Positions 2,637 to 27,017 of a stretch of 46,994 bases of DNA are shown here, piece by piece (within the stretch, counting starts at the first letter, position 1; every line of letters begins with the position of its first letter). Both the position numbers and the translations under genes were made by a program. Source of the stretch: Candidatus Methanobinarius endosymbioticus (GTDB lineage: Archaea > Methanobacteriota > Methanobacteria > Methanobacteriales > Methanobacteriaceae); NCBI GenBank assembly GCA_003315655.1, contig NIZT01000029.1, forward strand, positions 1 to 46,994. Reading direction: 5' to 3'. Under the pieces are notes generated by a model. That model did no database searches, was not told where the DNA came from, and saw only the letters and a list, made by a program, of their open reading frames with translations.

Positions 2637-3275
2637 TTATTTTTTCTTTTTAAGAGCTTTTTCAATTTTTTTAATTGCTTTGTTAGCTATTTTTTTGAAA
2701 TCTTTATCTTTTTCTTTTCTTCTAGCTTTTTTAATTGAAGTTATTGCTTCTTCAACTTCCATGTCACCAAGAGCTCTTATGGATGCAAGACGTACACCCC
2801 AATCTTCTTCTTCTAACATTAATGTTTCAATTTCATCTATTTTATCAGTAGCTTGTAATTCACCAAGAGCCCTAACAGCTACTTTACGAACACCAAAATC
2901 TTCATCATTAATAGCTTCTGAAAAGTAGTCAACAGCTTTTGGACTACCTGTTGTTTTTAATGCAAAGGATGCAAATCGTTTATATTCACCTTCTTCATTA
3001 TTAACAACTTCAATTAATCTATCAACTGTTAAATCTCCCATTTTACCAAGATTTTCTGCAGCTTTATGTCTTACAGGAGTGTTTGCATCTTTCATAGCTT
3101 CGATTAAAGGTTCGATGACAGCTTCATCTTCGATTCCTTCTAAACTATTAACTGCTAATTTTCTTATTTCTACATCAGAATCAGTTAATTTAGTTATAGC
3201 TTCATCCATTGGTAATTTTTCTTGATCATTAGTCATAATTTCATCCTCAAAGATAAAAATATTATATAAAAACAA
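2637..3275 (-). CDS. HEAT-repeat protein (PBS-lyase/E-Z type HEAT repeats).
   Basis: 212 aa with repeated motif units ..VRHKAAENLGKMGD.., ..VRKVAVRALGEL.., ..GVRLASIRALGDM.. and a Lys-rich C-terminus. The true start may be the internal MTNDQEKL. Confidence 0.7.
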   Translation of the reverse strand: MFLYNIFIFEDEIMTNDQEKLPMDEAITKLTDSDVEIRKLAVNSLEGIEDEAVIEPLIEAMKDANTPVRHKAAENLGKMGDLTVDRLIEVVNNEEGEYKRFASFALKTTGSPKAVDYFSEAINDEDFGVRKVAVRALGELQATDKIDEIETLMLEEEDWGVRLASIRALGDMEVEEAITSIKKARRKEKDKDFKKIANKAIKKIEKALKKKK

Positions 3276-3631: not shown

Positions 3632-6273
3632 AATATAAAAGATAAAATTATAAATAAACAAACTGAAAGCTATTCTAAAAAAGATATTTATAAAATTCTT
3701 CACCCATGGGTTAAAGAATGGTTTGATAATACCTTTAATGATTTTACTCCAGCTCAAAAACAAGCTATAGTATATATACATAAAAGAAACAATGTACTTG
3801 TTTCATCTCCGACAGGATCTGGAAAAACATTTACTGCATTTTTATCAGTTCTTAGTGAGCTAACTACACTTGCAGAGAAAAATGAACTAGAAGATAAAGT
3901 TTATTGTATCTATATATCTCCTTTAAAGGCATAAGATAATGATATTGAAAAAAATTTATAAACCCCCTAAATGAAATAGAAAAAATAGTTATTGATAATA
4001 GAGCAACTTATCAAAAAACTGCTAAAAAAACTGAAAAGGATTAGGAATTAGAAAAGCTGTTAGAACTGGAGATACTAGTCAATAGGAACGGTCAAAGATG
4101 CTTAAAAAGCCTCCCCATATTTTAATTACCACTCCTGAAACATTATCAATATTGCTTATAACCCCTAAGTTTAGGGAAAATATCCAATGTAAAATATGTT
4201 ATAATAGATGAAATTCATTCTTTAGCTGAAAATAAAAGAGGAGTTCATTTGAGTTTATCATTAGAACATCTTCAACATTTAATTGGAGGATATACAAGAA
4301 TTGGACTTTCAGCTACAGTTTCTCCTCTAGAAAAAATAGCTAATTTCTTAGTAGGTTATGAATATGGAACACCTAGAGATTGTCTTATTGTAGATGTTAA
4401 CTATTTAAAAGAACTAGATATTGAAGTTCTAAGTCCAGTAGATGATATTGTAGTAGCTTATAGGGAAGAAACAAGATTAGATATGTATAGATTAGTTGAT
4501 GATTTGATTGTTGAACATGAAACAACACTTATTTTTACAAACACTAGAATAGGAACTGAAAGTCTTGTTTATAACCTTAAGAAAATGTTTCCTGAAAATT
4601 ATAATTCTAATAATATTATGGCTCACCACTCATCACTTTCTAAGGAACTTCGACTTGAAGCAGAAAACAAACTAAAAGAAGGAAGTTTACGAACTGTTGT
4701 TTCATTTACATCATTGGAATTAGGAATAGATATTGGTTATATTGATTTAGTTATATTGATAAACTCTCCAAAATCAGTTTCAAGAACATTACAAAGAATT
4801 GGAAGAAGTGGACATAGACTGCATGAAAAATCTAAAGGAAAAATCATCGTTACTGATAGAGACGATCTTGTTGAATGTTCAATTCTTCTTAAAATGCTAA
4901 AGAAGGTAGAATTGATAAGATAAAAATTCCACACAATGCTTTAGATGTTTTAGCTCAACATGTTTATGGAATGAGTATTGAAAATCAATGAGACATTGAT
5001 TATGTTTATGATGTAATTAAAAAAAGTTATTGCTATAAAGACATAAGTCGTGGTGATTATGAAGACGTACTTAGCTATCTTGCTGGGGAATGGTGAATTA
5101 AAAGAAAGGTATGTATATGCTAAAATTTGGATTGATTATGATAAAAACCAGTTTGGAAAAAGAGGCAGACTAACTCGAATGTTATATTCAACAAATATTG
5201 GAACTATTCCAGACAGCACAGTAGTAGCTGTAAAATGTGATGGAGAAACAATCGGAAGAATCGAACAAATTTTCATGGAAAAACTTAAAAAAGGAGATAG
5301 TTTTGTAATAGGAGGAGGCATATATATATTTAACTATGGTAGAGGTATGACTATAAATGTTTCATCAGCTAGTGGACCTCTAATCATCCCTTCTTGGTTT
5401 TCACAACAACTTCCATTAGCATTTGATTTAGCTTTAGATATTCGGAGATTTAAAGCATTACTGGATCAAAAATTTGAGTATAAATGATCTAAAGATGAAA
5501 TTTTAGAGTTTATAAATGAATATCTTTATGTAGATGAATTTGCTGCTAAACTCTATATATGAATTTTTTAAAGAGCAATTCTTATATGCACAAATTCCAA
5601 GTAACAAAAAGTTGTTAATTGAATATTATACAGGATTTGGTGGAAGAAAATTTCTTATATTTCATTCTCTATTTGGAAGACAAGTGAATGATGCATTATC
5701 AAGAGCTATAGCTTATCTTATAGCAAAAAAAATAACATTGATGTTACAATAACTATTTCAGATAATAGATTTTATCTTAGCTCAGATAAAAGAATGAGTG
5801 GACTTGAATCGTTTAAAAGATTAAGTTCAGAAAATCTTAAATTCGTCCTTATAAATGCAATAAATAAAACAGAAACATTAGCTAGTCGTTTTAGGCATTG
5901 TGCAGGTAGATCATTAATGACATTACGTCGTTATAAAAGTCAAGATAAATCTGTTGGAAGACAACAAGCTAAAGGAAAAATTCTACTTAAATTTGTTGAA
6001 GATATGGACGATAACTTTTCCATTCTCAAAGAAGCTAGAAGAGAAGTTATTGAAGATTTCATGGATATCAAAAATGCAAAAAGAGTTCTCCAATGGATAG
6101 AAAGTTGACAATTAGAAATAAAAACAATTGATACTGTAATTCCTTCACCATTTGCATTTAATTTAGTATCAAAAAGCTATTTAGACGTTTTTGCACAAAC
6201 AAATAAAGCTGAATTTTCAAAAAGAATGCATAAAGCAGTTCTAAAAAAAAATCAAAGACCAATTAAAAGATGA
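3632..6273 (+). pseudogene. lhr: Lhr-type large ATP-dependent helicase (DEAD/DEAH box), heavily degraded with at least 3 frameshifts and at least 6 in-frame stops.
   Basis: Recognisable segments run in order across three frames: [47 protein letters not shown] (Walker A); ISPLKA-TAA-DNDIEKNL; [34 protein letters not shown]; [18 protein letters not shown] (DEIH box); [10 protein letters not shown] (motif VI); [31 protein letters not shown]; LAGEW-TGA; Lhr C-domain ..[24 protein letters not shown]..; ..[15 protein letters not shown]..; [27 protein letters not shown]. No ATG lies in frame at the 5' end. Confidence 0.85.
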
Positions 6274-6505: not shown

Positions 6506-6871
6506 ATGTTTTTAATCCCATTAAACTTTTGGATATTATTTTTTGCTGTATGTTTATTTTTAGAAATAGTTACAACTGGATTTTACCTAATGTCAGTGGG
6601 AATTGGATCAGTTGCAGCAGCAATAGCCAACTACTTAGGTTTTGATCCAACAATCCAATTAATCATTTTTGTTATAATTACCATTATTTGTATAATAGCA
6701 TCTAGACCATTAGCAAATAGATTAACAAGAGAATCACCAGATAAAAAAGTTGCAACTGATAGACTTGTTGGAAAAGAAGGAGTAGTATTTGAAGCTATTG
6801 ATCCAGAAAATTCAGGAATGCTAAAAATATCTGGAGAATTTTGGAGAGATAGTTATTGTGGAAAACGTTAA
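6506..6871 (+). CDS. NfeD-like membrane protein (short form; partner of stomatin). Likely a C-terminal frameshift.
   Basis: N-terminal TM helices plus C-terminal ..[11 protein letters not shown]. Immediately afterwards the +1 frame reads [19 protein letters not shown] (to 6902), which is the expected end of the NfeD OB-fold. The gene sits directly upstream of a stomatin gene, the classic nfeD-stomatin pair. Confidence 0.6.
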
Positions 6872-7095
6872 AGGAATAAGACTAATAGTTAGGAAAAAAT
6901 AAACAATTTTTAACTAAGAATTTAATATTTTCTTTAAAATAGTATTTAATATTTAAATTCAACATTTAAAATAAAAAATAAAATAAAAATAATAATAAAA
7001 ACAATAATATTAAGAATAATATTAATAACACAAATACTAATGTTAATAAAAATAAAAAAAATAAAATAAAAAATAGATATAATGGAGTCTAAAAA

Positions 7096-8099
7096 ATGGA
7101 TATATTCATATTAACTATCATGTTAATAATCATTGTAATTGTTTTAGCATATAAAGCTATAAAAATACTTAGACCTTATGAAAAAACAGTAGTAGAAAGA
7201 TTCGGTAAATATCAAAGAACTGTTGAAAGTGGTTTAATATTCATAATTCCTTTTATTGAATCTATTAGAAAAGTAGATCTTCGTGAACAAGTAGTAGATG
7301 TGCCTCCACAAGAAGTAATTACTAAAGATAATACTATAGTAGTGGTTGATTGTGTTATCTTTTATGAAGTAACGGATCCTTTTAATGCTGTTTACAATGT
7401 TGTAAATTTTTATCAAGCTATAACCAAGTTAGCCCAAACAAATCTTAGAAATATTATAGGTGATTTAGAGCTTGATCAAACTCTCACTTCCAGAGAAATG
7501 ATTAGTAGTCATCTTCGCAAAGTGCTTGATGAAGCTACTGATAAATGGAGAACAAGAGTTGTTAGAGTAGAAATCCAGAGAATCGAACCACCTAAAGATA
7601 TTGTAGATGCAATGAGTAAGCAAATGAAAGCTGAAAGAATGACGCGTGCTGCAATACTTGAAGCAGAAGGATATAAAGAATCTGAAATAAAAAGAGCTGA
7701 AGGTGACAAACAAGCAGCTATATTAGAATCAGAAGGTCGAGCAAAAGCTATCAAAAAAGTAGCAGATGCTCAAAAATACGAAGAAATATCTATAGCTGAA
7801 GGTCAGGCAAAAGCTACAATAGATGTTTATGAAGCTATTCATGCAGGGATCCTACCAATGATTTATTAGCTATAAAATATTTAGAAGCTCTTGAAAAAAT
7901 AGCTGATGGAAATTCTACCAAAATTTTCCTCCCAACTGAAGTATCTGGAATTCTTGGTTCAATCGGAGGAATAGCAGAATTATTTGATGATGACAACAAT
8001 CTAAATAAAAAGGAAACACACGAAAATAAAACTAAAACTTCTAAAATAAATGAAGTAATGGGTAAAATAAGTGAAAAAACAAGAAAACTCAATGAATAA
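7096..8099 (+). CDS. Stomatin/prohibitin (SPFH, band-7) family protein with a frameshift near 7850.
   Basis: N-terminal TM helix, then the SPFH core (..[24 protein letters not shown].. and a coiled-coil EA/KA-rich region). ORF-track frame ends ..HAGILPMIY* at 7869. The conserved C-terminus [32 protein letters not shown].. continues in the +1 frame to TAA at 8097-8099. Confidence 0.8.
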
Positions 8100-8164
8100 A
8101 AAAGAACAAAAAATTAAAAAATAAATAAGGATATTAAAATATATTTACAAATCTTATTTATATT

Positions 8165-8200
8165 CCTTTTTTATTTTTTCTTTTGTTTTTATTTTTATTA
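8165..8200 (+). terminator. Oligo-T tract (archaeal-type terminator signal) after the stomatin gene, preceded by a weak hairpin.
   Basis: cctttttt att tttt ctttt gttttt atttttatt lies directly 3' of the stomatin stop. Archaeal termination typically uses oligo-dT runs. Confidence 0.3.
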
Positions 8201-8237
8201 TTTAACTATCAAAATAATTAAAAAAAGAGAGATTATT

Positions 8238-8492
8238 ATGGGAGAATTAACTAGTTTACCTAATATTGGAAAAGTTATAGAAGAACAATTAAATGAAATT
8301 GGAATATTTACCATAGACGATCTAATCGAAACCGGAGCCAAAGAAGCTTGATTAGCTATTCTAGAGATAGATGATTCTGCCTGTTATAATAGACTTTGTG
8401 GATTAAAAGGAGCTATCCAAGGCATAAGATGGCATGATTTGTCAGAAAAAGACAAAGAAAATTTAAAAGAATTTTATAAATTAAATAAATAA
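8238..8492 (+). pseudogene. Small TfoX C-terminal-domain-like / helix-hairpin-helix protein with a single in-frame TGA at 8349-8351.
   Basis: MGELTSLPNIGKVIEEQLNEIGIFTIDDLIETGAKEA-TGA-LAILEIDDSACYNRLCGLKGAIQGIRWHDLSEKDKENLKEFYKLNK*. The TGA sits where this family has a conserved aromatic/Trp (..KEAWL..). A purine-rich RBS (agagag) lies upstream of the ATG. Confidence 0.45.
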
Positions 8493-8910
8493 CTTTTAAC
8501 AATATTTCTAGATTATACAAATTACAATTTTTTACTAATTTTATATAAATTAATAAAATTCTTATTAAAGTTTTATTCTATTAAATTAACTATTCTATAA
8601 ATTTTTATTTTATTATTTTATATTTATATCATTTTCATTAAAATATAATAATAACAATAACAAGTTTTAAATTTAAATTTAAATAATAATATTATTAAAA
8701 ATATAATTATACTTTTTTTATAAAATCTATTTTTATTAAAAAGTTTCAACTTATTCTTAAAAAGTGAATAAAAATTAAAAATAATATAAAAAAATATAAA
8801 AAATATAGAAATTTATATAAAATTATACAATTTAATAAAAATATGTGAATTGTATAATTTTATATTATAATTTTGCATTAAAAAAGAATTATAATAGATA
8901 AATTTAAAAT

Positions 8911-8939
8911 AAAACTCAAAAGGCTTAGATATGAGTTTT
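8911..8939 (+). promoter_or_regulatory. Perfect 8-bp inverted repeat (AAAACTCA-N13-TGAGTTTT) immediately upstream of the ddh RBS. Candidate operator or 5'-leader hairpin.
   Basis: Read directly from the sequence. The GGAGGG RBS is at 8946-8951 and the TTG start at 8959. Confidence 0.3.
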
Positions 8940-8958
8940 AATATAGGAGGGAAAATAC

Positions 8959-9933
8959 TTGACTGAAAAAACTAAAATTGGAATTGTTGGATATGGAAAT
9001 TTAGGAAAAGGTGTTGAATTAGGTATTGAACAAAATGACGATATGGAATTAATAGCTATATTCACTAGAAGAGATCCAAAATCATTAGATCATCCATTAA
9101 TGGAAAATATGGAAAATATGGAAAGTTATAAAGATAAAATTGATGTAATGATTTTATGCGGAGGTTCAGCTACTGATCTTCCAGAACAAACACCTGAAAT
9201 ATCTAAGATATTTAATACTGTAGATAGTTTTGATACTCATGCAAATATTCCAGATCATTTTGCTAATGTTGATAAAGTAGGAAAAGAAAATGGAACATTA
9301 AGCTTAATATCAACCGGATGGGATCCTGGTTTATTTTCTATGTATAGAATAATGGGAGAAAGTATGCTTCCTGTAGGAAATACCTATACCTTTTGGGGAA
9401 AAGGTGTGAGTCAAGGGCACTCTGACGCAATCAGAAGAATTGATGGTGTTTTAAATGCTAAACAATATACCATTCCTATTGAAAAATCTTTAGATAGAGT
9501 AAGATCTGGAGAAAATCCTGAATTTACTACTAAAGAAAAACATCTTAGAGTATGCTATGTAGTACTTGAAAGTGGAGCAGATAAAGCTAAAATTGAAGAA
9601 AAAATAAAAACTATGCCTAATTACTTTGATGAATATGATACTGAAGTAAATTTCGTCAGTGAAGAAGAATTAGATAAAAATCATAGTGGTATGTCTCATG
9701 GAGGATATGTTATAAGAACTGGTGTCTCCCAAAACGAAACAAAACAACGAATGGAATTTGTTTTGGATCTTGGAAGTAATCCTGAATTCACATCTAGTGT
9801 ACTTATAACTTATGCAAGAGCTGTCCAAAAAATTCATGAAGACGGGAAAAACGGATGTATAACTGTTTTTGACGTTCCTTTAGGTATGCTTTCACCAAAA
9901 CCTAGTGAAGAATTAATAAAAAAACTCTTATAG
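8959..9933 (+). CDS. ddh: meso-Diaminopimelate D-dehydrogenase (Ddh).
   Basis: 324 aa, alignable along its full length to bacterial Ddh: IGIVGYGNLGKGVE; STGWDPGLFS; FWGKGVSQGHSDAIRRIDGV; KHLRVCYVV; MPNYFDEYDTEVNFV; HGGYVIRTG; NPEFTSS. TTG start with a GGAGGG Shine-Dalgarno 7 nt upstream. TAG stop. Confidence 0.85.
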   Translation: MTEKTKIGIVGYGNLGKGVELGIEQNDDMELIAIFTRRDPKSLDHPLMENMENMESYKDKIDVMILCGGSATDLPEQTPEISKIFNTVDSFDTHANIPDHFANVDKVGKENGTLSLISTGWDPGLFSMYRIMGESMLPVGNTYTFWGKGVSQGHSDAIRRIDGVLNAKQYTIPIEKSLDRVRSGENPEFTTKEKHLRVCYVVLESGADKAKIEEKIKTMPNYFDEYDTEVNFVSEEELDKNHSGMSHGGYVIRTGVSQNETKQRMEFVLDLGSNPEFTSSVLITYARAVQKIHEDGKNGCITVFDVPLGMLSPKPSEELIKKLL

Positions 9934-10022
9934 AACTTTTTTTAATATTTTATTTTTATATAAATTATTTTTAATAATTAGTAATTGTAATATTTTTTTA
10001 TATTTAATTTTATACATATTTG

Positions 10023-10371: not shown

Positions 10372-12826
10372 TTATTGGTTTTTATGCTTTTTCCTTCTAC
10401 CAATTAATCCTATTAAACTGATCAATATTAGTATTATTGTAATTATTGGTATTCCAGTTTCTTTCATAACTACAACTTTAGCAGTAGGTGGATCATTGCT
10501 TGTTTTATTTGTATCATTACTAGGAATAGGATCAGGAATAATTGGATCTGGAATTGGAGATATTGGTCTTGGTTTAGGATCAAGTCTCTTTTTAACATTA
10601 AAACTAAATGATTTAACTCTTCCTTCAAAAGTACCATTACCAACAAAGTTCACAGAAATATCTATTGTTCTTGGGCTTTTTGGAGTGTATTTTAAGCTCC
10701 ATCCACTAGTACTATTAGTTGTAACAGTAAATTTTTGACCATCCACAATTATTTCCAATTCTGCATTTGCTATTGGGTTTCCTAATTCATCAGTGATTGT
10801 ACCAGGGATTATGGTTTCCTCATCAACAACACTATCATTAGCACCACCAGTTATATTAGTGTTTAATTTAGCTACATTGAAGCTTGTAGTATTTGTAAAA
10901 CTTAAATGAATGTTATTTACCAGCAAAACTAACAATAACATTAAAAACACCGCTATATTGAGGTGTATTTTAAACTCCAGAAACCATCACTATCAGTTAA
11001 GGTAGTGAATTTTTCACCATTGATTGTGATAGTGATTTCTGCATTAGCTAAAGGATCACCATTATTATCAGTTATAACACCATTAATATTCACACTTTGT
11101 GTAGCATTAGTATCCTGTGCATTGACTGTAGTGTTTGCTGGGATTTTTGAAACAGAAAATACTGAACTATTAGTAAAACCATTATGAATAGAATTACCTC
11201 CCCAGATTACAGCTATATTGTAAAGTCCTTCATTTATTGGAATATAAGTTAAAACCCATAAACCAAGACCATCAGTACTTACAATATAAGATATACCATT
11301 TACATTTACTGTTATCGGAGTATTAGCTATTGGATCTCCATTGGAATCAAGAACTATACCATTTATATTGTTTTGTTGACCAAGTTGACCATTACTGAAT
11401 ATTATTGTTGAGTTAGTACTTGCTTTTGCAACATTAAATAAAGTAGTATTAGTAAAGTCAAGATGAGTAAGATTATCATTCCAAAACACAGTCACATAGA
11501 AACTTCCATCGATATTTGGTGTGAATGTTAATGACCATTTACCGTCACTATTGGTTGCAATGTTGTAAACCCATATGTTTTCATCATTGTTCTCAATGAT
11601 AATTTGGATATTCACAATACCTATAGGATTACCACTTTCATCAAGTGCAATACCAGATATGGTTATATTTTTTACCACACGAGCATTGTTATAAACATTG
11701 ATAGTTGAATTAGTTGCATACTGTGTTACTTCAAACTCAGTAATATTTACAAAGATTGTGTGTGTATCATTACCTACTCATTGAACTATAACATCAAAAA
11801 TACCAGGACTAGTGGCTAAATATGTTAGGTTCCATTGCCCTAGGCTATTGGTTGTTCTAGTAAATTTTTGAGTACCTATAGTAATGTTAACTATGATATT
11901 TGCTAGCGGATTTTCATTTTCATCCTAGCTACACCAGAAATATTAATGTTTGTACCGACTTTTGTACTATTTGTAACATTAATAGTTGATTGTGTTGGTA
12001 TTTTTGTAAGTTCAGTGATATTTAGTTCACCGTTTAAGATGTTGATTGGGTATCCTGTGTGTCCACCATAATCACCAATCACAGGAACAACAGCCGGACG
12101 CATAGAATTATTCACACGGAAAATTATCATAGCTTCCCCATCATTATTACTAGTTGCAAAACCAACAAGTGTTCCATTGACATAGAATGATATTTTTTGT
12201 CCTGTTATAGTATTACCCATATCATCGGTTAAAAGTGCATAAAGAATAACACTAGCACCATCAACCAAAACAGTACTGTTACTGGCGATATGTTAAATTT
12301 AAAATGGCCATACGACCCACATTATAGATCATAGGGCCAAAGATACTTGCAATATTACCAGACATAACATTACAACAATAGACATACTGCCAGAATTACT
12401 GATAGCACCACCACTAGCTGCAGTATTGTTGATGAATGTTATTGTTGAGTTTGAGTAGTTGTTGTTAATCGCTCCTCCGTTATTTGTTGTGTATGCGTTT
12501 ATGAATGTTAGGTTTATGAAGGTTATGTTTCTGTTGTTGCCTATTGTAAAGATTCTGTTGAGTCCTTGTGCGTCGATGATTACCTTATCGGGTGAGCTGT
12601 TTCCTTGTATTGTTAAGTTTTTGTTGATTGTGATTCCACGGTTATTGATTTTGTTGTAGATTCCTTATTGTAGTGTTAATGTGTCTCCTTCTCCAGTATT
12701 TGTTATTCCTGTACTTATTCCAGTTGAATTATCAATAGTCTGATCAGCTGCACTTACAGCTGAAAAACTAAAAACAAAAAATAATAATAGGAATATTGTT
12801 AATATAGTTATTAGCTCTTTTTTCAA
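10372..12826 (-). pseudogene. Adhesin-like surface protein A (about 818 codons originally), fragmented by many frameshifts and stops. It has a Pmp/beta-helix N-domain and repeated Ig-like/CarboxypepD_reg-like domains.
   Basis: TTG start at 12826 with a GGAGGTG RBS. Signal peptide (M)KKELITILTIFLLLFFVFSFSAVSAADQ. Repeating roughly 100-aa units (..NGVITDNNGDPLANAEITITINGEKFTTLTDSDGFWSLKYT..). C-terminus is a Pro-rich linker PKPRPISPIPDPIIPDPIPS, then ETGIPIITIILILISLIGLIGRRKKHKNQ*. The ORF track shows the pieces at 11903..12268, 10953..11678 and 10372..10950 in different frames. Confidence 0.7.
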
Positions 12827-13762
12827 CGTTTTTCACCTCCTTTATGCTCGATTAAATTTATTTATAACTTGATTTTAATATTTAGTAATATGATTTGATT
12901 ATATTACTTAAAAAGATAATATCTCATAAAAAAATTGTATGATATATATTCTTTTTATTTTTTATTAATAGAAGAAAATTACACCATAATAAAAATATGC
13001 TAATTTTCTTCTAACTAATAAAAACTGTAATTATTCAATATTATGTTTAAAAACTCCATTATTTTTCATACTATTTTTTATAATTTTTATCATATTTCAA
13101 TAAAACATATTAATTAATAATGAATAAATCTTTTTCTTTCAGTTTTTTCTTTATACAGTGATATAACGAAGTTGAAATATTAAACATATGAATATACAAA
13201 ATAATAGTGAGGAATCATTCATATTTCAATATACATGATATAGTAAATACTCACTGATAAACGGCTGTAAAGATTTGTGGGTTTATTTTTATTTTTTGAT
13301 ATATGGATTTTTTTCCATGAATAAGTGATATTAATAGAGTGATATTTAAAAATTCATTTTATTATTATTGTCTTATGAGTTATTATAATAATTTTTATTA
13401 GCTATTTACATCTAAAATTTTTTACAAAACAAATTTTTTTAGTGAACCTTTAGTCTTTATTAACTATATTTTCATCCCATAAAAATAGAGGAGAAGATAA
13501 TATAATTTTATTAAATTATTACATTTTTGAGTATATGTGAGAAAAAAATTTTTTGAAAATGATATATTTTCTATGAAGTTATGTTAAATGCCAAAAAAAT
13601 TTTATTTGAATATAATCATTTATATTATTACAGGCGTCATTAAAAATGTTTTTTCAAAACATCTGAAGAAAAATATAGTGAAATAATACATATAACAAAT
13701 AAAATAATCGATATGTTTGAAGAAAAAAAATTATATGAAAAATATAAAAATAAAATTATGAA

Positions 13763-14083
13763 TTGGAAACTATAAGAAAATTTTACAGATTATCTCCTAC
13801 TAAAAACAAAAAAAATTATTTTAAAATCATGAAAAATGATTTTGAAGAGATGGAAAAAGACAGTGTAAAAAACCAAGATTATATTATTAATCTTGAAGGT
13901 AGAAACAAGAATTTTTATTTAAATATATTTAGAGCAGATTCATTCCATGAATTAGATGCTTTAAATAGAATTGATGATTTAAAAATCGAAAATCACGACT
14001 TTAAAGTCAAAAATAGAGATTATAAGAAAAAAATAAAATCATATGAAAAGGAAACAAGAAAAATTTATTCTTCAAAAAGTTGA
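13763..14083 (+). CDS. Hypothetical Lys-rich protein. The annotated start is TTG; an upstream ATG at 13713 in another frame suggests a 5' frameshift.
   Basis: 106-codon ORF ending in TGA. No recognisable domain. MFEEKKLYEKYKNKIMN.. (13713) runs into it with a 1-nt offset at an A8 homopolymer. Confidence 0.3.
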   Translation: METIRKFYRLSPTKNKKNYFKIMKNDFEEMEKDSVKNQDYIINLEGRNKNFYLNIFRADSFHELDALNRIDDLKIENHDFKVKNRDYKKKIKSYEKETRKIYSSKS

Positions 14084-14117
14084 AAAATTACTAAGCCACT
14101 TAGAAAAGTAATGAATA

Positions 14118-15171
14118 ATGTTAAATAGCCTTGAAAAATTTAAAACTAGTTGGATGATAATTTTGAAAAAATTAGTTAATAATATAATTGAATTAAGTAT
14201 TGATGAAATCGATAAATTTAATTTTCATTATGGAGAATTTGAAGGTTTAAAAATAATAGAAGATGAAGTAGAATATGAGTTCTTATTTCGTTTTTCTAAA
14301 GAAAAGCACGATCTAATTTGTTTTAGATCAGATGCAATTGATAGAAATGGCCCTAATGCTTTAGATCCCCCTATATTTAGTAGACATAGTTGGAACAATC
14401 ATTTTAAAGAATCTGTTTTATATTATAATGATACAACATTATATAGATGAGAGTATTGGTGTGGGATGGTGTTTAAGAACTGAAGATAACTATTATCTTG
14501 AAATAATAGCTAAAATTATAGAAAAAATTGTAAAAAGAATTAATGTTAAAAATGAAGATATTTTGTTTTTTGGTAGCTCTGCTGGAGGTTTTACTTCAGT
14601 AATTTTAGGAACAATGTTTAAAAATTCTTATGTAGCAGTAAATAATCCCCAAATAGACTTAAAAAAATATCATCATTATGAAAAAGTTATGAAAGTGTGT
14701 ATGGTAATAAAGACCCAGAATTAGATGATAATTTGAAATACAGAACTAAGTTAATAGAAATATTGAAAAAGAAAAATATGTTCCTCCAATGAGTTATTAT
14801 GTAAATGCTGGGTCATGGGATGATATAATAAACATTGCACAACATTTACAAAAGGACTTAAAAGATTAAGTTTCTTAAAAGAAGTGAATATAAACATCTA
14901 TTTTGATTATAATGGATATGACACTATGAATAATAACGATTCTATACATATTATCAGAACCATGTGTAAAGAACGTTTATATAATTATGGAAAAAATAAA
15001 AGACAAATTAATCCAAATGACCTTATTAAACAACAAAAACGGTTGAAAAAGAAAAATAATCAATTGAAAAAAGAATTAAAAGAATATAAATCACGAAAAA
15101 GTGTTCGTATATTTGATAAAGTATCAAAAGTTAAAATCAAAATTTTAAATATTTTTAAAATAAATTTATAA
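14118..15171 (+). pseudogene. Alpha/beta-hydrolase-fold esterase-like protein, split into at least 3 pieces (14118..14450, 14428..14724, ~14700..14869, 14884..15171).
   Basis: Nucleophile elbow LFFGSSAGGFTSVILG (GxSxG). An Asp lies in ..YYVNAGSWDD.. downstream in a second frame. A candidate His lies in ..NNDSIHIIRT.. in a third piece. This order and spacing fit a Ser-Asp-His triad. The family is not recognised. Confidence 0.4.
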
Positions 15172-15309
15172 CAAACCAATAGAAATAATTATAAAGCATA
15201 ACTTAAAAATAAAATAGTAATATACATAAAAATGAAAATAAGAATAAAAAATTGGATTAAATAATAATAACATGTGAAAAATGTGTTATTTTAATGTATG
15301 GGTGTTTAA

Positions 15310-15669
15310 ATGGAATTAAAGGATATTTATGAAAATATAAATCTTAAGTCTCTTATTATTGGGGCAGCTTTATTTGCTTTTATAGTTGTTTTAGCTACAG
15401 AATACAACTTAGATATATTACTAATCTTTTCATCAGTAGGTCTTTTATATATTGGATACGGATCACGAAACAAACTTCAGAGTGTTGTATTAGGAGCTAT
15501 AGGAACATTACCACTATTTATAGCTACAGTATTCTTTGAAAGACTGGGACCAATCACAGGAGAAAATATAACTCTCTTAATATTAATCTCATTTTTAGCT
15601 ATAGGAGCTTTTTGTGGATTTACAGGATTTTATTTTAGTGAAAATAGGAAAAAAGCTATTGGACAGTAA
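15310..15669 (+). CDS. Small integral membrane protein (3-4 TM helices).
   Basis: 119-aa hydrophobic ORF. No recognisable domain. Confidence 0.4.
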   Translation: MELKDIYENINLKSLIIGAALFAFIVVLATEYNLDILLIFSSVGLLYIGYGSRNKLQSVVLGAIGTLPLFIATVFFERLGPITGENITLLILISFLAIGAFCGFTGFYFSENRKKAIGQ

Positions 15670-15835
15670 GAATCCATAGGAAAAGGAAGAAAAAAGAAGG
15701 AAAAAAGTAAAAAATAATACTTTATAATTAAAAATTAATTATAATTAATAAAAAAGAAAATAAAAAAATGATTAAAATAATAAAATATAATAAGAAAAAA
15801 TAAAACATAATGGATAAAAAAAATAAATTTATCCA

Positions 15836-18578
15836 TTAAAAATAAATATTTAAGTTATTTTTTGTAACAATCAATCCTAAACTACTTAATAAAACTAATA
15901 TTATAGCTAATAATGGAATTCCTGTAGTCTCATTGTTGCATTTGTTTTAGCTAGATTTTTATCAGTAATATTAGAGTTGTTTGTGTTATTAATATTGTTG
16001 GTATTATTAGTATGTTTGTGTTATTGTTTTTTGAAATATAAGTTGAAGTAAAATTATTACTGCCAAAATACATCTCATCTTCTTGGAAGGTTACATTAAA
16101 AGTATATTGTCCAGTTTTTTCGAATTTATAATTCAACTTAGCTATTCCTTTCTCATTAGTAATGGCACTTCCAATTAAAACTCCATTAACATGAAAATTC
16201 ACAGTTTTATTTGCAATTAATGCTTCAATTTCTTTATTTATTAATTTAACAACTAAAGTTACAGTTTCATTAATTTTTCCATTTACTTTTTCGATATTAA
16301 TATTAGTTGGAGTTTTATTTACAACCAAAAAAGCAATACTATTAGAAACAGGATAATCAAGATCTTCTAAAAATTCTGCAAAGATTGAGAAAGTTCCTGA
16401 AGCATTTGATTGATATTCAAATTTTGCAATTCCTTGGCTATCAATTATTTCACTACCCACATAAACTCCATTCACATGAAATCTAATGGTTTTATTGTTT
16501 AATGGATTGTTTGAATTATCAACTAATTTTGCAGTTAAATTAACTTTTTGTCCAGCTTTAACTGAAGAATTATAAACAGTAGTGTTGGTAATTGCAAAAT
16601 TTATTCCAATTATTGAGTTCTCATCGTCAGATGATGCATTCATCGAATAAAAGTTATCACTTGTCCATTTAAAACATGTAAAATATTAGTATCCCTAATA
16701 TCCCCATCCTGAATATTTTCATCAGGTGTTCTTACTGAAACTTCAAAGTAAGGTAAGTTTGTTGGATTATTTATCACAGGACTATTTGTAGATAAAAAAT
16801 AATTTAATTGAGACTTTGATTATTTTTGTAAGAAAGATTTTTATTTTGACTGAATTTTTGATTGTTTACAGATATCTGTAAAAAGTACCAATAATCAAAG
16901 ACTAAACCATTCCCAATATCAATAACTTGGGTTGTTGCAATTATTTACACCCCACCAGTTCAAATTAATATTATTACTGTTTCCAGAATTATATAAACCT
17001 ACTGAGTTTTCTACAATTCTATTATAATTAATATTATTGTTATTTCCAGTTAGATTCAATCCATAACCATCGTTGTTCATAACAGTTGAACTATTAAAGA
17101 TGTTATTACTACCTTGGATTATTATTCCATTACTATTATTTGCTATAGTAATATTTGTTAAATTATTGCCAACAACTGTAGAATTAATTATTAAACCAGT
17201 ATCTGTTAAATTTCCAATAGTAATGTTTTTTAATGTATTATTTACACCATTAATTAAAATTCCATTAAAATTACTTCTATTGATAAATCCATTTGATACA
17301 TTATTCCTATTTCCTTTTATAGCAAAAATATACTGATTGTTATTTACAGTGTTATTTAAAACATCAATATTTAAGTTTATATTTGTATCATCAAAATATA
17401 TTCCTAAAACACCGAAATTATCAGTGAAACTATTGTTTTTTAATGAATTTAATGGTTGATATGTTTCTACTGCAAAGTTATCATGATTTGTGAAACTATT
17501 TTTTTCTATAGTTATATTCCATCCAGTATTATAAATTGCACCACCTCTTGTAGAAGCATGGTTATTGTCAAAGATAGAATTAATTATAGTGACATTATGA
17601 CTTCCGGCAGAGTTCCATATTGTTCCACCAAATGAAGCATTATTATTTGAAAATAGAGTATTATTAATCAAGATATTTGATCAACTCCATTTATTGCTCC
17701 ACCACTGCCAAAAACTTTATTATTGGTGAAATTTGAGTTAATTACATTAATTCCTCCACCTAATGAAGAAATTACTCCTCCTCCAGAAGAAGAATTCTGT
17801 CCAGATACATTGTTATTTTATTAAATCTTGAAGAAATTATGGAAAAGTTAAATCCTGCATTGTTAAATATTGCTGCTCCTTGATATGCTGAATTGTTAGA
17901 GAAAGTAGTATTCATAATTCTTGAATTGCTCCCGTAGTTATTGTATATAGTCCCACCATGAGTAATATTATTTCCTGAAACATAATTACCCATAAAATTA
18001 GAATTTAGAATGTTTAAATTGTTACTAGCATTATTATAAATAGTTCCACCATCAATAATTCTAAAATTATCTTGGAAAGAAGAACCAGATATATTTAAAT
18101 TACCCCTATTAAATATTGCTCCTCCTTGAATAGCACTATTATTAATAAATGTACAATTTACTATTGTGAGCATTCCAGTATTTTTTAATGCTCCACCTTG
18201 ACCATTATAATATGCATTTATAAAAGTTACATTAATAAGAGTTAATTGACCATTTATAGCATTAAATATCCAGCTATTTCTAGAACCATTCATTATTGTA
18301 GAATTATTACCTATAATAATGAGATTTCGAGTATTAAATGTCAAATTAAGATTACCGCCACCAGTATACAGGTTATCATTTAAGTACATAGTTCCATTTC
18401 CACCATTAATAGTTTGTAATCGATTTATCCCGTCAATTAAAGTACTATCATTATTTAAAGAAACATTTCCAACCCCATTATTTATAACAACAACAGTAAT
18501 ACTTCCAATAGCTGAAAAAAGCACAAATAACATTAAAATACTTCATCGAAACAAAGTCGTTTTTTGCATAAATTTCAT
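15836..18578 (-). pseudogene. Adhesin-like surface protein B (about 914 codons) with Pmp-type / right-handed beta-helix repeats, fragmented.
   Basis: ATG at 18578 with a GGGGTGA RBS. Signal peptide MKFMQKTTLFR-TGA-SILMLFVLFSAIGS (in-frame TGA at codon 12). Repeats are of the form GGAIFN.GNLNISGSSFQDN..GGTIYNN. C-terminal Ig-like domains follow (..VNGVYVGSEIIDSQGIAKFEY..). The C-terminal anchor NNETTGIPLLAIILVLLSSLGLIVTKNN..* is reached only after a further frameshift. Confidence 0.7.
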
Positions 18579-18982
18579 GATTTCACCCCCTATCATGCAT
18601 TAGAGTTAATAAAATATATCACTTAGTGACATATAAATTTATCATGAAAATATCATGCAAAGATATGGACATATATATAATTATTCATATCCTTATTTTT
18701 ATTAAAAAATAAATTATTTTAATTTAAAAATAAGAAAAGATATAAATGAAATCTAAAAATATTATAATAAGATCAATATCAGATTATAATTGAAAGTATA
18801 AAAAATTTAACTAATTAAAAAAATAAATAAAATAGATAAAATTTAAAACTAAACATATTTAAGGATAGTTTAATTATTTATCCTTATTTTCTTTTTTTAA
18901 AATAAATTATACAATTTAAATAAATTAAATTAATAAAAAATTCTTGATAACTTAAAAAATATTTAATAATTATTAGTTAATA

Positions 18983-19020
18983 ATTAACAATTAACAATTA
19001 ACAATTAACAATTAACAATT
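18983..19020. repeat. Tandem microsatellite (ATTAACA)x5 plus a partial copy, with degenerate copies upstream (ttaataa / ttaacaa).
   Basis: Read directly from the sequence. It lies in the 656-bp divergent intergenic region between the adhesin-B start (18578, -) and the AKR gene start (19236, +). Confidence 0.9.
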
Positions 19021-19235
19021 TTTTATAATTTAAACAAGTATTTTGATATATAAAATATAGAGAATATTATAATATTATAATTATATATTTATATATTCGA
19101 ATATAAATTAAATATGATAAATTTTAAAATTAATTTCAAACATAATATTTTATAATTAAAACAATATTTATGAATAAAAATTGTAATTTATGATTAAAAA
19201 AATAATTAATTCAATAATAGAGAAGATGAACAGGA

Positions 19236-20378
19236 ATGAAATATAGAAAAATTGGAAATACTGGTATGTCAGCTAGTATTATTGGGCTTGGGACAGAATT
19301 TTTAGATGGTAAGCCATATAGTGTAGTAGAAGAAACTATAAATACTGCATTAGAAAATGATATAAATATCTTTGATGTATTCATGCCAGGAGAAGAAGTA
19401 CGTAAGAATATAGGAAAAGCGATTGGTGACAGACGAAAAAATGTCATCATACAAGGACATATTGGTTCAGTAGATTTAAACCAACAATATGATATTAGTC
19501 GAGACTTACATACATGTGAAAAATATTTTGAAGGATTAATGGAAAATCTCGGTACTGATTATATTGATATAGGAATGTTGTTTTTCATGGATACTGAAGA
19601 AGAACTTGAAAAACTTCATACAAATGGAATTATAGATTATGCTCTAGAATTAAAAGAAAAAGGAATTATAAAATCTATAGGAACTAGCTCCCACAATCCA
19701 AAAGTTGCTAAAAAAGTATTAGAAACAGGAATAGTGGATCTTTTGATGTTTAGTATCAATCCAGCATTTGACATGACATCACCAGATATAAATGTACTAG
19801 AAGAAATTGAAGAATTAGGAAAAAAACAACTTTTCACAGTTGACTCTGAACGGAAAGAACTTTATAAATACTGTGAACAACAAAACATTGCCATCACAGC
19901 CATGAAAGCTTTTGGAGGAGGAGTAATTTTATCTAAAGATGATTCTCCATTTAAAAAGGAAATGACACCAGTTCAGTGTATTGATTATGTATTATCACGT
20001 CCTGGAGCAATAAGTGCAATGGTTGGATGTGAATCTGTTGAACAAGTAGAAGAAAGCATGAAATATCTAAATAGTACACCTGAAGAACGTGATTACATAG
20101 ATATAATTAGTGAATATCAAGAAGGATTTGATGGTAAGTGTGTTTATTGTAATCATTGTCAACCATGCCCTTCTAATATAGACATAGCTATGGTTAATAA
20201 ATATCTTGACATTGCAATATTAGATACTAATAAAATTCCTCCAAGCATTATTCAACACTACAAATCATTACCAGTAAATGGTACAGATTGTATTGCTTGT
20301 GGAAACTGTGAGGAAAAATGCCCATTTTCTGTCCCGGTGATAAAAAATATGGAAAAAGCAGCAAAATTATTAGAATAA
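19236..20378 (+). CDS. Aldo/keto reductase fused to a C-terminal 4Fe-4S ferredoxin-type domain (COG1453-like Fe-S oxidoreductase).
   Basis: MKYRKIGNTGMSASIIGLGTEF.. is an AKR N-terminus. Two Cys clusters follow: CVYCNHCQPCP and CIACGNCEEKCP. 380 aa, intact. Confidence 0.85.
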   Translation: MKYRKIGNTGMSASIIGLGTEFLDGKPYSVVEETINTALENDINIFDVFMPGEEVRKNIGKAIGDRRKNVIIQGHIGSVDLNQQYDISRDLHTCEKYFEGLMENLGTDYIDIGMLFFMDTEEELEKLHTNGIIDYALELKEKGIIKSIGTSSHNPKVAKKVLETGIVDLLMFSINPAFDMTSPDINVLEEIEELGKKQLFTVDSERKELYKYCEQQNIAITAMKAFGGGVILSKDDSPFKKEMTPVQCIDYVLSRPGAISAMVGCESVEQVEESMKYLNSTPEERDYIDIISEYQEGFDGKCVYCNHCQPCPSNIDIAMVNKYLDIAILDTNKIPPSIIQHYKSLPVNGTDCIACGNCEEKCPFSVPVIKNMEKAAKLLE

Positions 20379-20479
20379 TACAAAAATATCACTTTTTAAA
20401 TTGATAAACATTAAAAAAACATGAATAAAAAATTGAATTAAGGATGAAAAAATAATATCCTTATAAAAACTGTTTTAAA

Positions 20480-22615
20480 TTATTTTTTTCTATATACTAC
20501 TCCTATGCTGCTAATGATACTAAGATTATAGCTATTATTGGTAATCCCCTATTGATTTTCATATTAGCATTTGTTTTTATATGATTACTAGTGTTTTTAT
20601 GATTAGGTTTAGGGTTTGGAATTTTATTAATTTCAATAGATAAAGACACGATAATAGCCTGATATAATTCACTACCAATATAATCAGCTGTGATTGTATA
20701 TCGACCTGTTTTATCAAACGTATATTTAATCACTGCAACATCATTTTCATTAGTTATTCCAGAACCATTAATTTTCCCATTGATATAAAAATTAACACGT
20801 TCATTGCTAATTGGATTGCCATTTTCATCAGTTAATGTTCCACTGATAATTACAGTACTACCTGGTTTTTTATCACCAATATCTTCAATAACAAGATTAG
20901 TTGAATATTTTTCAATATTGATAGTTTTATTAGAATTACTAATTATAGTAATCAGCGTTTCCTTGGAAATTAGAGTTTATATCATAAGAACCAACACTAT
21001 TAAATATATGATTTAGAGTTGCAACACCATCTGTATTTGTTATTGCAGAACTATAATTATTTTTCATTGATATAAAAATCGATTTGTTACTTGCTTAATG
21101 GATTATTATTGTCATCAGTTAATTTGCTTTCAATAGTGATATTTTTTCCTAGACTAATGTTATTTTTAATTTTATTTGATTTTTAGTAGAAATTTTATCT
21201 ATTTTCAATAGACCATTATTTAGTATAATAGAAAATCCTTCATGTCCAGAATAATTTCCTGTAACAAGAACTAGTGTATTAGGTTATTAGTAACATTATA
21301 GGTAAAATTTGCATAACCTTCTGTTGAAACTACATCTGCTAAATGAGTACTAGTAAGATAAAAAGAAATAATTTGTCTAGTGACTGTATTTCCCATATCA
21401 TCTGTCAAAGTAGCATAAACAATAATATTTTGACCTTTTTTAGTAGTAATAGTCTCATTATTTAGATAAGTCAAATTAAGAGTCCCTATATTTCCAATAT
21501 TATAAATCATTTGACCTAAATTAGCAGAATTACCAGTTATCTTATTACCTAAAACTGTCATATTACCTTGATTATATATACTACCACCAAAATTTCTAGC
21601 TTTATTATTTACAAAAGTAGAATTTTTTATATTAGAAGTTTTACCATTATTGTAAATAGCACCGCCCTAATAGCATAATTATTCTCAAAATGGAATTAGT
21701 CAAATTCATTAAACCATTTTCATTTATAAATATTGCACCACCATCAACAACAACAGCACCATTGTTCATAAATTTAATATTTTTTATATTAGCTGTTTAA
21801 TTAGGATTAAGAAAAACAGCACCACCATTAACATTAGCAAAATTATCAGAGAATATAGAATCATTAATAGTTAAATCATCACCATTATTAATAAAAATTC
21901 CACCACCTTCAGAAGCAATGTTATTAGTGAAATTACTGTTAGAAATATTGGATTTGGAATTTGTATTAAAAAATATAGCTCCACCATGACCTGAAAATCC
22001 ACCATCACCAATATAGCTTGGACTATTAGAAAAACTGGAATTAATTATATACATATTATTATCACTATTATAAATAACTCATCCTAATCCTCCATAATAA
22101 CTATTAAGAGTGTTATTAATAAAATTTGTGTTCATAATTTTCATATCATCACCAGTATTATAAATAACACCACCTGCACTAGAAAAATGAGTGGTAGCTG
22201 TGTTATTGATAAAATCAAGATTATTTAATGTTATTTTTCCCCCATCATTATAAATAGCACTACCATTATCACTCAAACCATTGATTAAAGTAATATTTAT
22301 TAATGTAAGTGTTCCATTACTATGCATATTAAAAATTCTACCTAGATTTTGAGCATCAATAATCGTGTTTTTCTTATTTTTTCCTATTATTATGATATTT
22401 TTATCTATAGTGATATTAGTAACATTATTTCTATATTTTCCACTATTTAAATGTATAATACTTCCATTAGGAGTATTTTCTATAGTTTGTCCTAAATTAT
22501 CACCACTAGTTATATTAGTTTCAACAGCACTAACACTTGACAAACTAATAGTAAATAAGATTACCAATAATGCTAATAAAATCATGATTGAAGTAGATTT
22601 TGCATTAATTTTCAT
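20480..22615 (-). pseudogene. Adhesin-like surface protein C (Pmp/beta-helix repeats plus Ig-like domains), fragmented.
   Basis: ATG at 22615 with GAGGTGA upstream. Signal peptide MKINAKSTSIMILLALLVILFTISLSSVSA. Repeats include GGAIFFNTNSKSNISNSNFTNNIASEGGGIF. An Ig-like domain (..TLTDDMGNTVTRQIISFY..) is homologous to one in adhesin A. C-terminus ..NRGLPIIAIIL|SIISSIGVVYRKK* needs a frameshift. Pieces in the ORF track are 22079..22615, 21797..22054, 21271..21561 and 20503..20733. Confidence 0.7.
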
Positions 22616-23194
22616 AAATTTCAGATTTTCACCTCTTTTAATTCAGTATATTAAATTTCTAAATATAATCATTATAATTATATAATTATTAATTATAATT
22701 TATTTAATTTATAGTTTTATTGTTAAATATTAATATTTTTTATAAATAATTAATGTAAAATAAAACATGAAATAAATAAATTTTTTGTTGAAAATATAAA
22801 TAAATTATGAAATAATTTTGATAAAAATATTTTTTATAAGAATTGAATATTATATAGCAAAAATAAAAAAGTTAAATGAAGATAGAAAAACTTTTGAATA
22901 AAATTGAAAAATAATGATATAATTTAAAAAATATATATTTAAATATTATATCACTTAAAGAAATAGATAGTAAATATAAAATAATAGAATTTTAAATAAA
23001 ATATAATGGGGCAATTTATTGAATTGAGAATAAATTTTATTATTAAATTTTATTTAATATTTATTTTTTACTGAATATATTTTTAGTTTATTTTAAAATA
23101 TTAAAATAAATTATGATATTGTTTTGAATAAATTTAATTTATGGAGTTAATTTTATCGAAGAATATTTGAAAATTATTTTAGGTGGGTAAATAA

Positions 23195-23859
23195 ATGGAA
23201 AAAAAATAAGCTTTTTATATGTATTATGATTGTGAGTGCTATTGGAATATTAACTGTGGTGGGAGACGGCTTTTTCACAGGGCCTGATTTATCTTTAAGC
23301 AACAAAAATATATTAATATTAGCTAGTGACAAAACTGAACAACCTGGAGGCGGTGTGGACATGGTATTTATGGTTAGATTGGAAAATGGAAGTATAAAAA
23401 ATATGTTGTTGTATATCCAGGAGGGAGAACACATCCTACCCAACCAGCTCCAGGTAATCTTCAAAGAAAAATGCTTCTTCATGATTATCTATGGAATGGC
23501 CCAGAACAAGGAATGCAATATGCAAAAGAAATAGTTGAATCCGGTACTGGAAAAAAGTCACTGCAGTAGTAGTCGTTTATGATGAAGGTTTAGATTCTGT
23601 TATAGATTCTATGAGGCCACTTAAAATTGATGGAGAAGAAACTAATCTCAGTTCAACAGATATTGTAAGATAAAATGACAATTATTCTGATTATATTGGT
23701 AGAAATAATAGTATTACAGGAAATATGTCAAAAGGAGATTCAGTGATGATACTAGTTAAAGCACTTTCACAAGCCGCCACAGATCCAAGTAAAAGAAATA
23801 CTATGGTTCAAACAGCTTTAGATGAATATTCCAAAGGAAATATTATGATGAATCCATAA
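23195..23859 (+). pseudogene. Probable LytR-CpsA-Psr (LCP) family cell-envelope protein, with at least 3 frameshifts and 1 in-frame TAA.
   Basis: AGGTGG RBS, then ATG GAA AAAAAAAA TAA. Removing one A from the run gives MEKNKLFICIMIVSAIGILTVV (TM anchor). Downstream across frames: ..ILASDKTEQPGGGVDMVFMVRLENGSIKNM | VVYPGGRTHPTQPAPGN..YLWNGPEQGMQYAKEIVESGTGKK | VTAVVVVYDEGLDSVIDSMRPLKIDGEE..VR-TAA-NDNYSDYIGRNN.. This resembles the LCP core. The family call is tentative. Confidence 0.4.
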
Positions 23860-23928
23860 GGATCTTTTATGGGCTTATTAACTATAAAAGGACTTGAAAA
23901 TCTTACATAGCTAAAAATAAGATTTTAC

Positions 23929-23961
23929 AAATGAGTTAGTATTAAATAGACTAGCTCATTT
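23929..23961. terminator. 11-bp stem hairpin (aaatgagttag-N11-ctagctcattt, one G-U) followed by T-rich sequence, between convergent genes.
   Basis: Read directly from the sequence. It lies 3' of both the LCP pseudogene (+) and the MBL gene (-). Confidence 0.35.
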
Positions 23962-24109
23962 ACATATAAATTTTTAAAAAAATTATTTCTTTTAATTATT
24001 TTATTTTTTATCTTTAATTATATTTATTTAACTTTATTTTTTCATTAGCTATTATAATTAAATTAGATAAAAAAATACACCAATTTCTATTTTTAATGCA
24101 TTACAATTG

Positions 24110-24913: not shown

Positions 24914-25232
24914 ATTGACTCATCCTGATTAAATATATGTTTAATAATACATATTTAGAAAAAATACTTTAAAATAAAATAATTTATAATTAATCTTTAA
25001 AAAGTTTAAATTAATAATATATATTTAAATTATTAATACCTATTTAATAGGCAATTATTTTTTTATTATTAGTAATATAAATCTGTTAAATATTTAAATA
25101 ATATTTATTATATAATTTTATAATGAAATATGTAATATTATAATGATCATATAATAAATTGTAATTAATGATGTAATAACTATTAAAACATGATGATATA
25201 GAAATATAATTAGTTGATTAATATGTCGAAGG

Positions 25233-25820: not shown

Positions 25821-25981
25821 ATTAGTTCAATGTGTCATTTTAATAATAAATAGAATAATAAAAATAGTAAAATTATGATAATTTGAGTTTGATTTAAAAT
25901 CATTTGATTATTTGATCTTGAGATATTGTAATCATGAGTTAGTGTGATCATTAACTATATTTAAAATATTTATTTAATAAA

Positions 25982-26624: not shown

Positions 26625-27017
26625 GCTTAATTTAGGATTATTTTTATAAAAAGGAAAATCTAACCCTTTTCTTTCAAATTTAAAAATTCAGATTTCTTAT
26701 CAGAATTTATGTCTTTCAATTTATCACCTTAAAATATTCTTGCTTATAATAATTAAAATAAACTAAAATTATTTTAATCATTCAATTATAAAATTATAAA
26801 GTTTATAAAGTTATTATCTATGTAACAAGTATATTATATTTAATTGGTTAAAAATATATAAAATTAAATTATTCTCATATTAAATTATCCCTTTCAATGA
26901 AAGTTTAATTATAGAATTTTATTTATAAATTTACTAAAAAAGAATAAATAAGAATATAATAAGGAATAGATAAGGATAAAATAATTAATTTATCCTAAAA
27001 CTAAAAATTGTTTATAA

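Follow-up and report, generated by a model that had tools for sequence, protein, structure and literature searches.

An intact meso-diaminopimelate dehydrogenase gene of bacterial ancestry, probably retained for lysine synthesis in a methanogenic endosymbiont

The ciliate Nyctotherus ovalis, from the cockroach gut, harbours a methanogenic endosymbiont, Candidatus Methanobinarius endosymbioticus (strain NOE in the literature). We analysed a 46,994-nucleotide stretch of the endosymbiont genome (contig NIZT01000029.1, hereafter the window), which carries at 8959..9933 on the + strand a gene, ddh, that by its sequence encodes a genuine, intact meso-diaminopimelate (meso-DAP) dehydrogenase (Ddh) of bacterial ancestry. 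Comparison with related sequences established the identity and intactness of the gene, the conservation of its residues, its phylogenetic position, its synteny and the selection acting on it; the enzyme would serve lysine supply. We consider it quite probable that ddh specifies a working Ddh for lysine synthesis, that it descends vertically from a single old transfer of a Bacillota-type gene, and that selection has retained it in the endosymbiont.

Results and Discussion

Identity and integrity of ddh

The sole long open reading frame (ORF) in the region 8911-9933 was ddh itself, which runs from a TTG start to a TAG stop through 324 codons with no internal stop (protein RBQ23045.1, locus tag ALNOE001_11680). 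The product scored 444 bits with the NCBIfam equivalog TIGR01921, for which the cutoff is 180.6, and its residues 4-324 aligned to positions 3-324 of the 324-position model; the Pfam C-terminal dimerisation and substrate domain DAPDH_C (PF16654) was covered in full (model positions 1-154 of 154; 3.3e-74). The top match among solved structures was the meso-DAP dehydrogenase of Ureibacillus thermosphaericus (PDB 3wyb, E = 5.6e-142), with about 64% identity over the full length, followed by PDB 3wgo (9.6e-130) and the more remote enzyme of Corynebacterium glutamicum (PDB 1dap, 1.2e-86). By every test of membership that can be applied to a sequence, the predicted protein belongs to the long-known Ddh family. 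The first-pass annotation, which had proposed a full-length, lesion-free Ddh of bacterial type in a methanogen, was thus borne out by the match over the whole TIGR01921 model and by the unbroken reading frame.

That annotation had also described a strong Shine-Dalgarno sequence and a TTG start, and both could be read directly. The ribosome-binding site (RBS) AGGAGGG lies at 8946..8952 (+ strand), with its GGAGG core 7 nt 5' of the TTG at 8959. GGAGG was invariant across six aligned orthologous leaders, and at the aligned start codon three relatives likewise have TTG, two others having ATG; the start position is therefore supported. In a further orthologue, which resembles that of Methanobrevibacter sp. 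TMH8 (locus L003, 8001-9014), CTG stands at the position of the TTG and the gene caller placed the start 13 codons further upstream, giving 337 amino acids; the true start of that gene is uncertain.

Residue conservation

Functional residues were examined in an alignment of the window Ddh with C. glutamicum Ddh and with 41 archaeal and 55 bacterial relatives. The positions were those that we take, from the C. glutamicum structure, to be important for binding NADP and substrate. All eleven substrate positions (D92, D122, S151, Q152, G153, H154, D156, T171, R197, H247 and N274 in window numbering; D90, D120, S149, Q150, G151, H152, D154, T169, R195, H244 and N270 in C. glutamicum) were identical to the reference. 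The GxGxxG-like signature of the dinucleotide fold, GYGNLG, was kept (G8, G11, Y12, G13, N14, L15 and G16), and so was the NADP motif T36-R37-R38, a T/S-R-R motif that reads the 2'-phosphate of NADP. T-R-R was found in 41 of 41 archaeal sequences and R-R in 55 of 55 bacterial ones. Together with the substrate-site positions, T-R-R was nearly invariant over the archaeal set; the glycine-rich N-terminal positions were seen in about 30 of the 41, the remainder being N-terminally truncated. The five sites that differ between 3wyb and the engineered D-amino-acid dehydrogenase 5gz1 (Q152, D156, T171, R197 and H247) are all wild type in the window Ddh. The first-pass annotation had let its assignment hang on the NADP-binding and substrate residues, and every position checked was present. 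The window Ddh is accordingly a candidate for NADP(H)-dependent interconversion of meso-DAP and tetrahydrodipicolinate.

Relatives and origin of ddh

The nearest 44 Ddh sequence clusters, at 70-83% identity, came from arthropod-gut metagenomes and from named archaea. Archaeal orthologues were found in cultured Methanobrevibacter (Methanobinarius) arboriphilus (WP_080460760.1, from the type strain DSM 1125, and WP_042701911.1), Methanobrevibacter sp. TMH8 (WP_224426275.1), Ca. Methanorudis spinitermitis (MDR2966885.1) and two metagenome-assembled genomes of Methanobacteriaceae or Methanobrevibacter. The best bacterial identities were 64-68%, descending from 68% (Natranaerovirga, Clostridium, Halanaerobiales) through Ureibacillus, Lysinibacillus, Selenomonas and others, and a Ddh search of genome contigs gave bacterial loci at 58-67% identity among the matches listed. 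For four vertebrate-associated species, the GapMind sheets in the accessible part of a 2026 comparative study (PMC13135261) list candidates for dapL, dapF and lysA and none for ddh, which shows that not every member of the family carries the gene.

A neighbour-joining tree was built from 41 archaeal sequence clusters and bacterial relatives, with C. glutamicum as the root and 300 bootstraps. The 41 archaeal sequences formed one clade in 298 of 300 replicates, and this clade was nested deep in a Bacillota-dominated radiation. Gene context was read for eight of the 41 clusters, and in seven of these eight loci the gene order of the window is shared on at least one side of ddh (NfeD/Band_7 upstream and/or PurP downstream). 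The G+C content at third codon positions (GC3) of ddh is 0.138, within the native range of the neighbouring genes (0.10-0.17). Because the archaeal sequences make up one clade inside the Bacillota types, share a locus and show native codon usage, the evidence points to one old transfer from a Bacillota-like bacterium to an archaeon, followed by vertical descent; the donor group was presumably of Bacillota type. Placement of the Ddh in a vertically inherited archaeal clade, which the first-pass annotation had named as a refutation of its view, was half borne out: the gene does lie in such a clade, and its transfer was an old event not peculiar to this genome, but the bacterial origin stands because the clade is nested among Bacillota enzymes.

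An acquisition private to the endosymbiont, or a recent genomic island, was also considered; it was ruled out by the native GC3 and by the occurrence of the locus in seven related contigs.

Selection on ddh

The ratio of nonsynonymous to synonymous substitution rates (dN/dS) of ddh was 0.16 in the comparison with L001, the nearest relative, at a dS of 0.51; on the branch of the window itself it was about 0.17. For purP the ratio was about 0.05-0.07. These values are approximate, since dS is high (0.5-1.0). Decay of the neighbouring genes was judged by tblastn of the window against intact relatives. Pyridox_ox_2, Lhr, NfeD, Band_7 and TfoX_C were all frameshifted, interrupted by stops or truncated, which agrees with the earlier description of dead accessory genes around ddh. 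In L001 (Logan SRR33769981) Lhr and TfoX_C are dead and ddh is intact; in L209 (Logan SRR29082275) Lhr, NfeD, Band_7, TfoX_C and DUF5518 are dead and ddh is again intact. Because its dN/dS is 0.16-0.17 and it stands intact beside pseudogenes in the window, L001 and L209, ddh appears to be kept by selection, as had been supposed from its survival in the window alone. Purifying selection, with retention of ddh in three eroding lineages while its neighbours decay, is well supported by these sequence comparisons.

The Ddh proteins of L209 and L001 are 81-83% identical to that of the window, and gene decay around ddh is similar or heavier there. This suggests that public read sets contain additional Methanobinarius lineages of an endosymbiont-like kind, represented by the two contigs.

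Role of Ddh in lysine synthesis

Pseudomurein contains lysine and lacks DAP, so that DAP has no known structural use in this host. An NADP(H)-dependent Ddh (EC 1.4.1.16) would convert tetrahydrodipicolinate, ammonium and NADPH to meso-DAP in one step, and LysA would decarboxylate meso-DAP to L-lysine, which would go into protein and into the pseudomurein wall with its lysine residues. In the history that we propose, an ancestor of Methanobinarius and Methanorudis, both of them arthropod-gut genera, would have received a ddh of Bacillota (Clostridia/Bacilli) type a single time. The gene would have inserted between purP and the NfeD/Band_7 pair, acquired the codon usage of its host and been inherited vertically from then on. 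The Nyctotherus endosymbiont would retain it amid decaying non-essential genes because it still makes its own lysine.

GapMind accepts either lysine route, through DapL or through Ddh. It was used to refine the amino-acid pathway calls of the comparative study cited above, which scores lysine synthesis as present in M. endosymbioticus and finds the syntheses of Val, Ile, Leu, Phe, Tyr and Trp to be absent (PMC13135261, Table S3). Neither lysine nor DAP terms occur in the supplements of PMC11287868.

Several points weigh against the reading of ddh as a lysine gene acquired once and kept by selection, in addition to the high dS noted above. The activity of the archaeal Ddh members is predicted from sequence alone, and the presence of dapA, dapB and lysA in this genome is taken from the plus/minus entries of the published table (PMC13135261, Table S3). 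The tree is neighbour-joining only, and the placement of P0104, a protein on a 1.7-kb contig, as sister to the archaeal clade was recovered in just 133 of 300 replicates. The deepest archaeal branch, P0037 (70% identity), carries ddh in a different locus, through either relocation after one transfer or a second acquisition from a similar donor.

Other explanations for the presence of ddh were weighed against these observations. In a genome that is only moderately eroded, many genes are intact by chance (PMC13135261), and ddh might be a dispensable, neutral survivor that by luck has so far escaped a disabling mutation. We regard this as highly improbable: dN/dS is low, on the window's own branch as well, the gene is intact in three independently eroding contigs with flanks full of stops, and the catalytic positions are all invariant. 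Only slightly better placed, and still very unlikely, is a role outside lysine synthesis, in which Ddh would oxidatively deaminate meso-DAP, scavenged when the ciliate digests bacterial peptidoglycan, or would aminate other 2-oxo acids to D-amino acids. The host ciliate eats bacteria, and DAP could thereby be available; some Ddh enzymes can moreover be engineered to broad D-amino-acid activity, as in 5gz1. However, the five residues that must be mutated for relaxed specificity are unchanged in the window Ddh, and the closest characterised enzymes are meso-DAP dehydrogenases, which are regarded as strictly DAP-specific. A scavenging role also fits poorly with the equal conservation of ddh in free-living M. 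arboriphilus and with a pseudomurein devoid of DAP. Lysine synthesis thus remains the role that we prefer.

A separate question is whether Ddh is the only route left to meso-DAP, with dapL and dapF gone or reduced to pseudogenes in the endosymbiont, or else throughout its genus or even throughout the Methanobinarius/Methanorudis group. We put this forward as a tentative and somewhat doubtful possibility. It would agree with the retention of ddh under selection in three eroding lineages with dying neighbours, and with a lysine pathway scored complete where six other amino-acid pathways are scored lost (PMC13135261). No dapL was found on this contig. With a Methanothermobacter DapL as query (P0138; TIGR03542, 682 bits), the best 120 matches were all from Methanobacterium or Methanothermobacter, and a codon-biased DNA pattern for the CYPNNPTGT motif retrieved at least 120 DapL loci from metagenomes, none of them assignable to arthropod-gut clades; among the loci listed, none had flanking genes in common with the window. 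On the other hand, other Methanobacteriales have dapL and dapF, M. ruminantium among them with both, and DapL is abundant in Methanobacterium and Methanothermobacter. The two routes also coexist in Bacteroides fragilis and Clostridium thermocellum, according to Hudson et al. 2011 as cited in PMC4176475. If Ddh were indeed the only route, a lysine pathway of the dehydrogenase type would have its first case among archaea, and the wall and protein lysine of an obligate intracellular archaeon would depend entirely on a bacterial gene transferred long ago.

Comparison with known Ddh enzymes

The Ddh proteins of M. arboriphilus and TMH8 are about 77-79% identical to that of the window, equal in length and members of the same archaeal clade, and the TMH8-like L003 has the gene in the same chromosomal locus. 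Their hosts are free-living or live on the gut wall and have intact genes next to ddh, whereas the neighbours in the window are pseudogenes. The Ureibacillus enzyme 3wyb (about 64% identity) and the 3wgo chain have identical substrate and NADP residues and the same domain layout. They come from bacteria that need meso-DAP for both peptidoglycan and lysine, whereas the methanogen wall contains lysine and no DAP; and, unlike them, the archaeal Ddh are known as sequences. C. glutamicum Ddh (1dap), the founding member of the dehydrogenase branch, belongs to the same family, has the same catalytic residues and runs beside a second DAP route. It is more remote, serving as the outgroup of the tree, and its parallel route is the succinylase branch, where in Methanobacteriales the parallel route would be DapL/DapF. 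B. fragilis and C. thermocellum, in which a DapL-using lineage also has Ddh (PMC4176475), would be the likely model if dapL persists in the endosymbiont. These are bacteria, and here Ddh alone was seen, from one contig.

The enzyme family itself is already known, and the gene is correctly named in RefSeq for cultured relatives: RefSeq/GenBank has given the label diaminopimelate dehydrogenase to the orthologues of M. arboriphilus, TMH8 and Ca. Methanorudis spinitermitis. No new enzyme, mechanism or regulatory element is revealed here. In the full-text literature searched, no paper was found that mentions Ddh together with Methanobrevibacter, and a methanogen clade carrying Ddh, with ddh resisting genome erosion, appears not to have been described in the literature covered by the search. 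Gut methanogens are textbook users of DapL; one of their sub-lineages would have gained a one-step dehydrogenase route from Bacillota-like bacteria long ago. It would make a small but clean case of inter-domain transfer, fixed and selectively maintained in an eroding intracellular archaeon. The sparing of ddh in three decaying lineages would further suggest that lysine self-sufficiency matters to these symbionts while branched-chain and aromatic synthesis is abandoned. As to annotation, RBQ23045.1, which is called meso-diaminopimelate D-dehydrogenase in UniRef and 'hypothetical protein' at NCBI/GenBank, should be named diaminopimelate dehydrogenase, as its orthologues rightly are.

Inverted repeat upstream of ddh

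The first-pass annotation had drawn attention to a perfect inverted repeat 5' of the Shine-Dalgarno sequence (AAAACTCA at 8911-8918, 13 nt, TGAGTTTT at 8932-8939) and had suggested an operator or a translational hairpin. The repeat is exact, and one more base pair was found in each arm, giving TAAAACTCA-N13-TGAGTTTTA at 8910..8940 with arms of 9 bp at 8910-8918 and 8932-8940. A regulatory function, whether as an operator close to the transcription start that binds a dimeric archaeal repressor or as an RNA hairpin that modulates translation, would draw on these perfect arms 6 nt 5' of the RBS, on the single occurrence of the full 29-nt pattern in the window, and on a leader RNA that folds somewhat better than shuffles (-9 kcal/mol, z = -2.2; 6 of 200 shuffles equally good). 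However, the predicted hairpin is weak, and its stem stops short of the RBS and leaves both it and the start codon free. The right arm was not found in the orthologous leaders L001, L002, L003, L004, L209, L210 and L211, including those at 81-83% protein identity and those of all five nearest relatives; in the leader alignment it owes its existence to some 13 nt that are private to the window.

Such repeats are about as common as chance predicts. The window has 154 perfect 8-bp inverted repeats with short loops, and when two or more G/C in each arm and a loop of 3-20 nt are required the number is 16, versus 15.2 +/- 5.6 in dinucleotide shuffles. When recurrence of the palindrome, another suggestion of the first-pass annotation, was checked in the window, the half-sites were at background (3 and 2 copies versus about 2.3 expected) beside the single full copy. 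Rfam, the lysine riboswitch included, gave no match in the whole window at gathering thresholds, nor in 8090-9000 at E <= 1, and no regulator gene adjoins ddh in the window. A regulatory role is therefore very unlikely on these grounds. The repeat is most likely a lineage-specific, chance by-product of an indel in a very AT-rich spacer, and it plays no demonstrable part in the function or regulation of ddh.

Some relatives have a MarR-family gene in divergent orientation immediately 5' of ddh, or a PadR-family gene immediately 3' of it (L211 3185-3619, - strand; L004 8738-9295, - strand); neither is present in the window. These genes could be local regulators of those relatives.

At the other end of ddh, a T-rich tract (AACTTTTTTTAATATTTTATTTTTAT..., 9934..9975, + strand) was read directly after the stop codon. 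Archaeal transcription terminates at oligo-T, and the tract is a putative stop of this archaeal kind. A promoter and terminator scan found no bacterial-type hairpin terminator at 9934..9975, but its bacterial models are uninformative in an archaeon and performed at chance level.

Gene neighbourhood of ddh

The contig carries the archaeal markers MCM (with an archaeal winged helix), aIF2-beta, NMD3, PurP and TyrRS. The G+C content of the window is 24.6%, and only about 30% of it lies under intact-looking genes. The full gene order of the locus is seen in L003 and L004 as Lhr, (flavodoxin), NfeD, Band_7, (TfoX_C), ddh, DUF5518, PurP, Metallophos, FtsJ and MCM. The different locus of P0037 (L206; GCA_051649785.1, contig JBOFHT010000105.1) still has archaeal neighbours, namely LonB, PRPP synthase, HypA and thiolase/HMG-CoA synthase.

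In the window, ddh and purP are whole. Further upstream, a CN_hydrolase gene (201-1070) and a HEAT-repeat gene (2637-3275, - strand) are intact, and the pyridoxamine-oxidase-like Pyridox_ox_2 (1205-1694, + strand) is a frameshifted pseudogene split over two frames. The Lhr-type large helicase (3647-6249, + strand), intact with 880 amino acids in L003 and dead in L001 and L209, is a pseudogene here too, lying in two frames with internal stops and at least five ORF fragments. NfeD (6506-6871, + strand) is truncated to 121 amino acids versus about 142, the Band_7/SPFH gene (within 6506-8489, + strand) has a frameshift near 7848, and the TfoX_C remnant (8238-8489, + strand) has no ORF. The flavodoxin gene of the relatives is missing from the window.

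Between ddh and purP the window has a gap of about 19 kb (10372-29427), versus 2-4 kb in relatives, and pieces of genes for adhesin-like surface proteins (Ig-like, CarboxypepD_reg, beta-helix) fill it. Also inside this gap are genes for an aldo/keto reductase with Fe-S motifs (19236-20378), a metallo-beta-lactamase-fold protein (24110-24913) and a DNA-3-methyladenine glycosylase (25233-25820).

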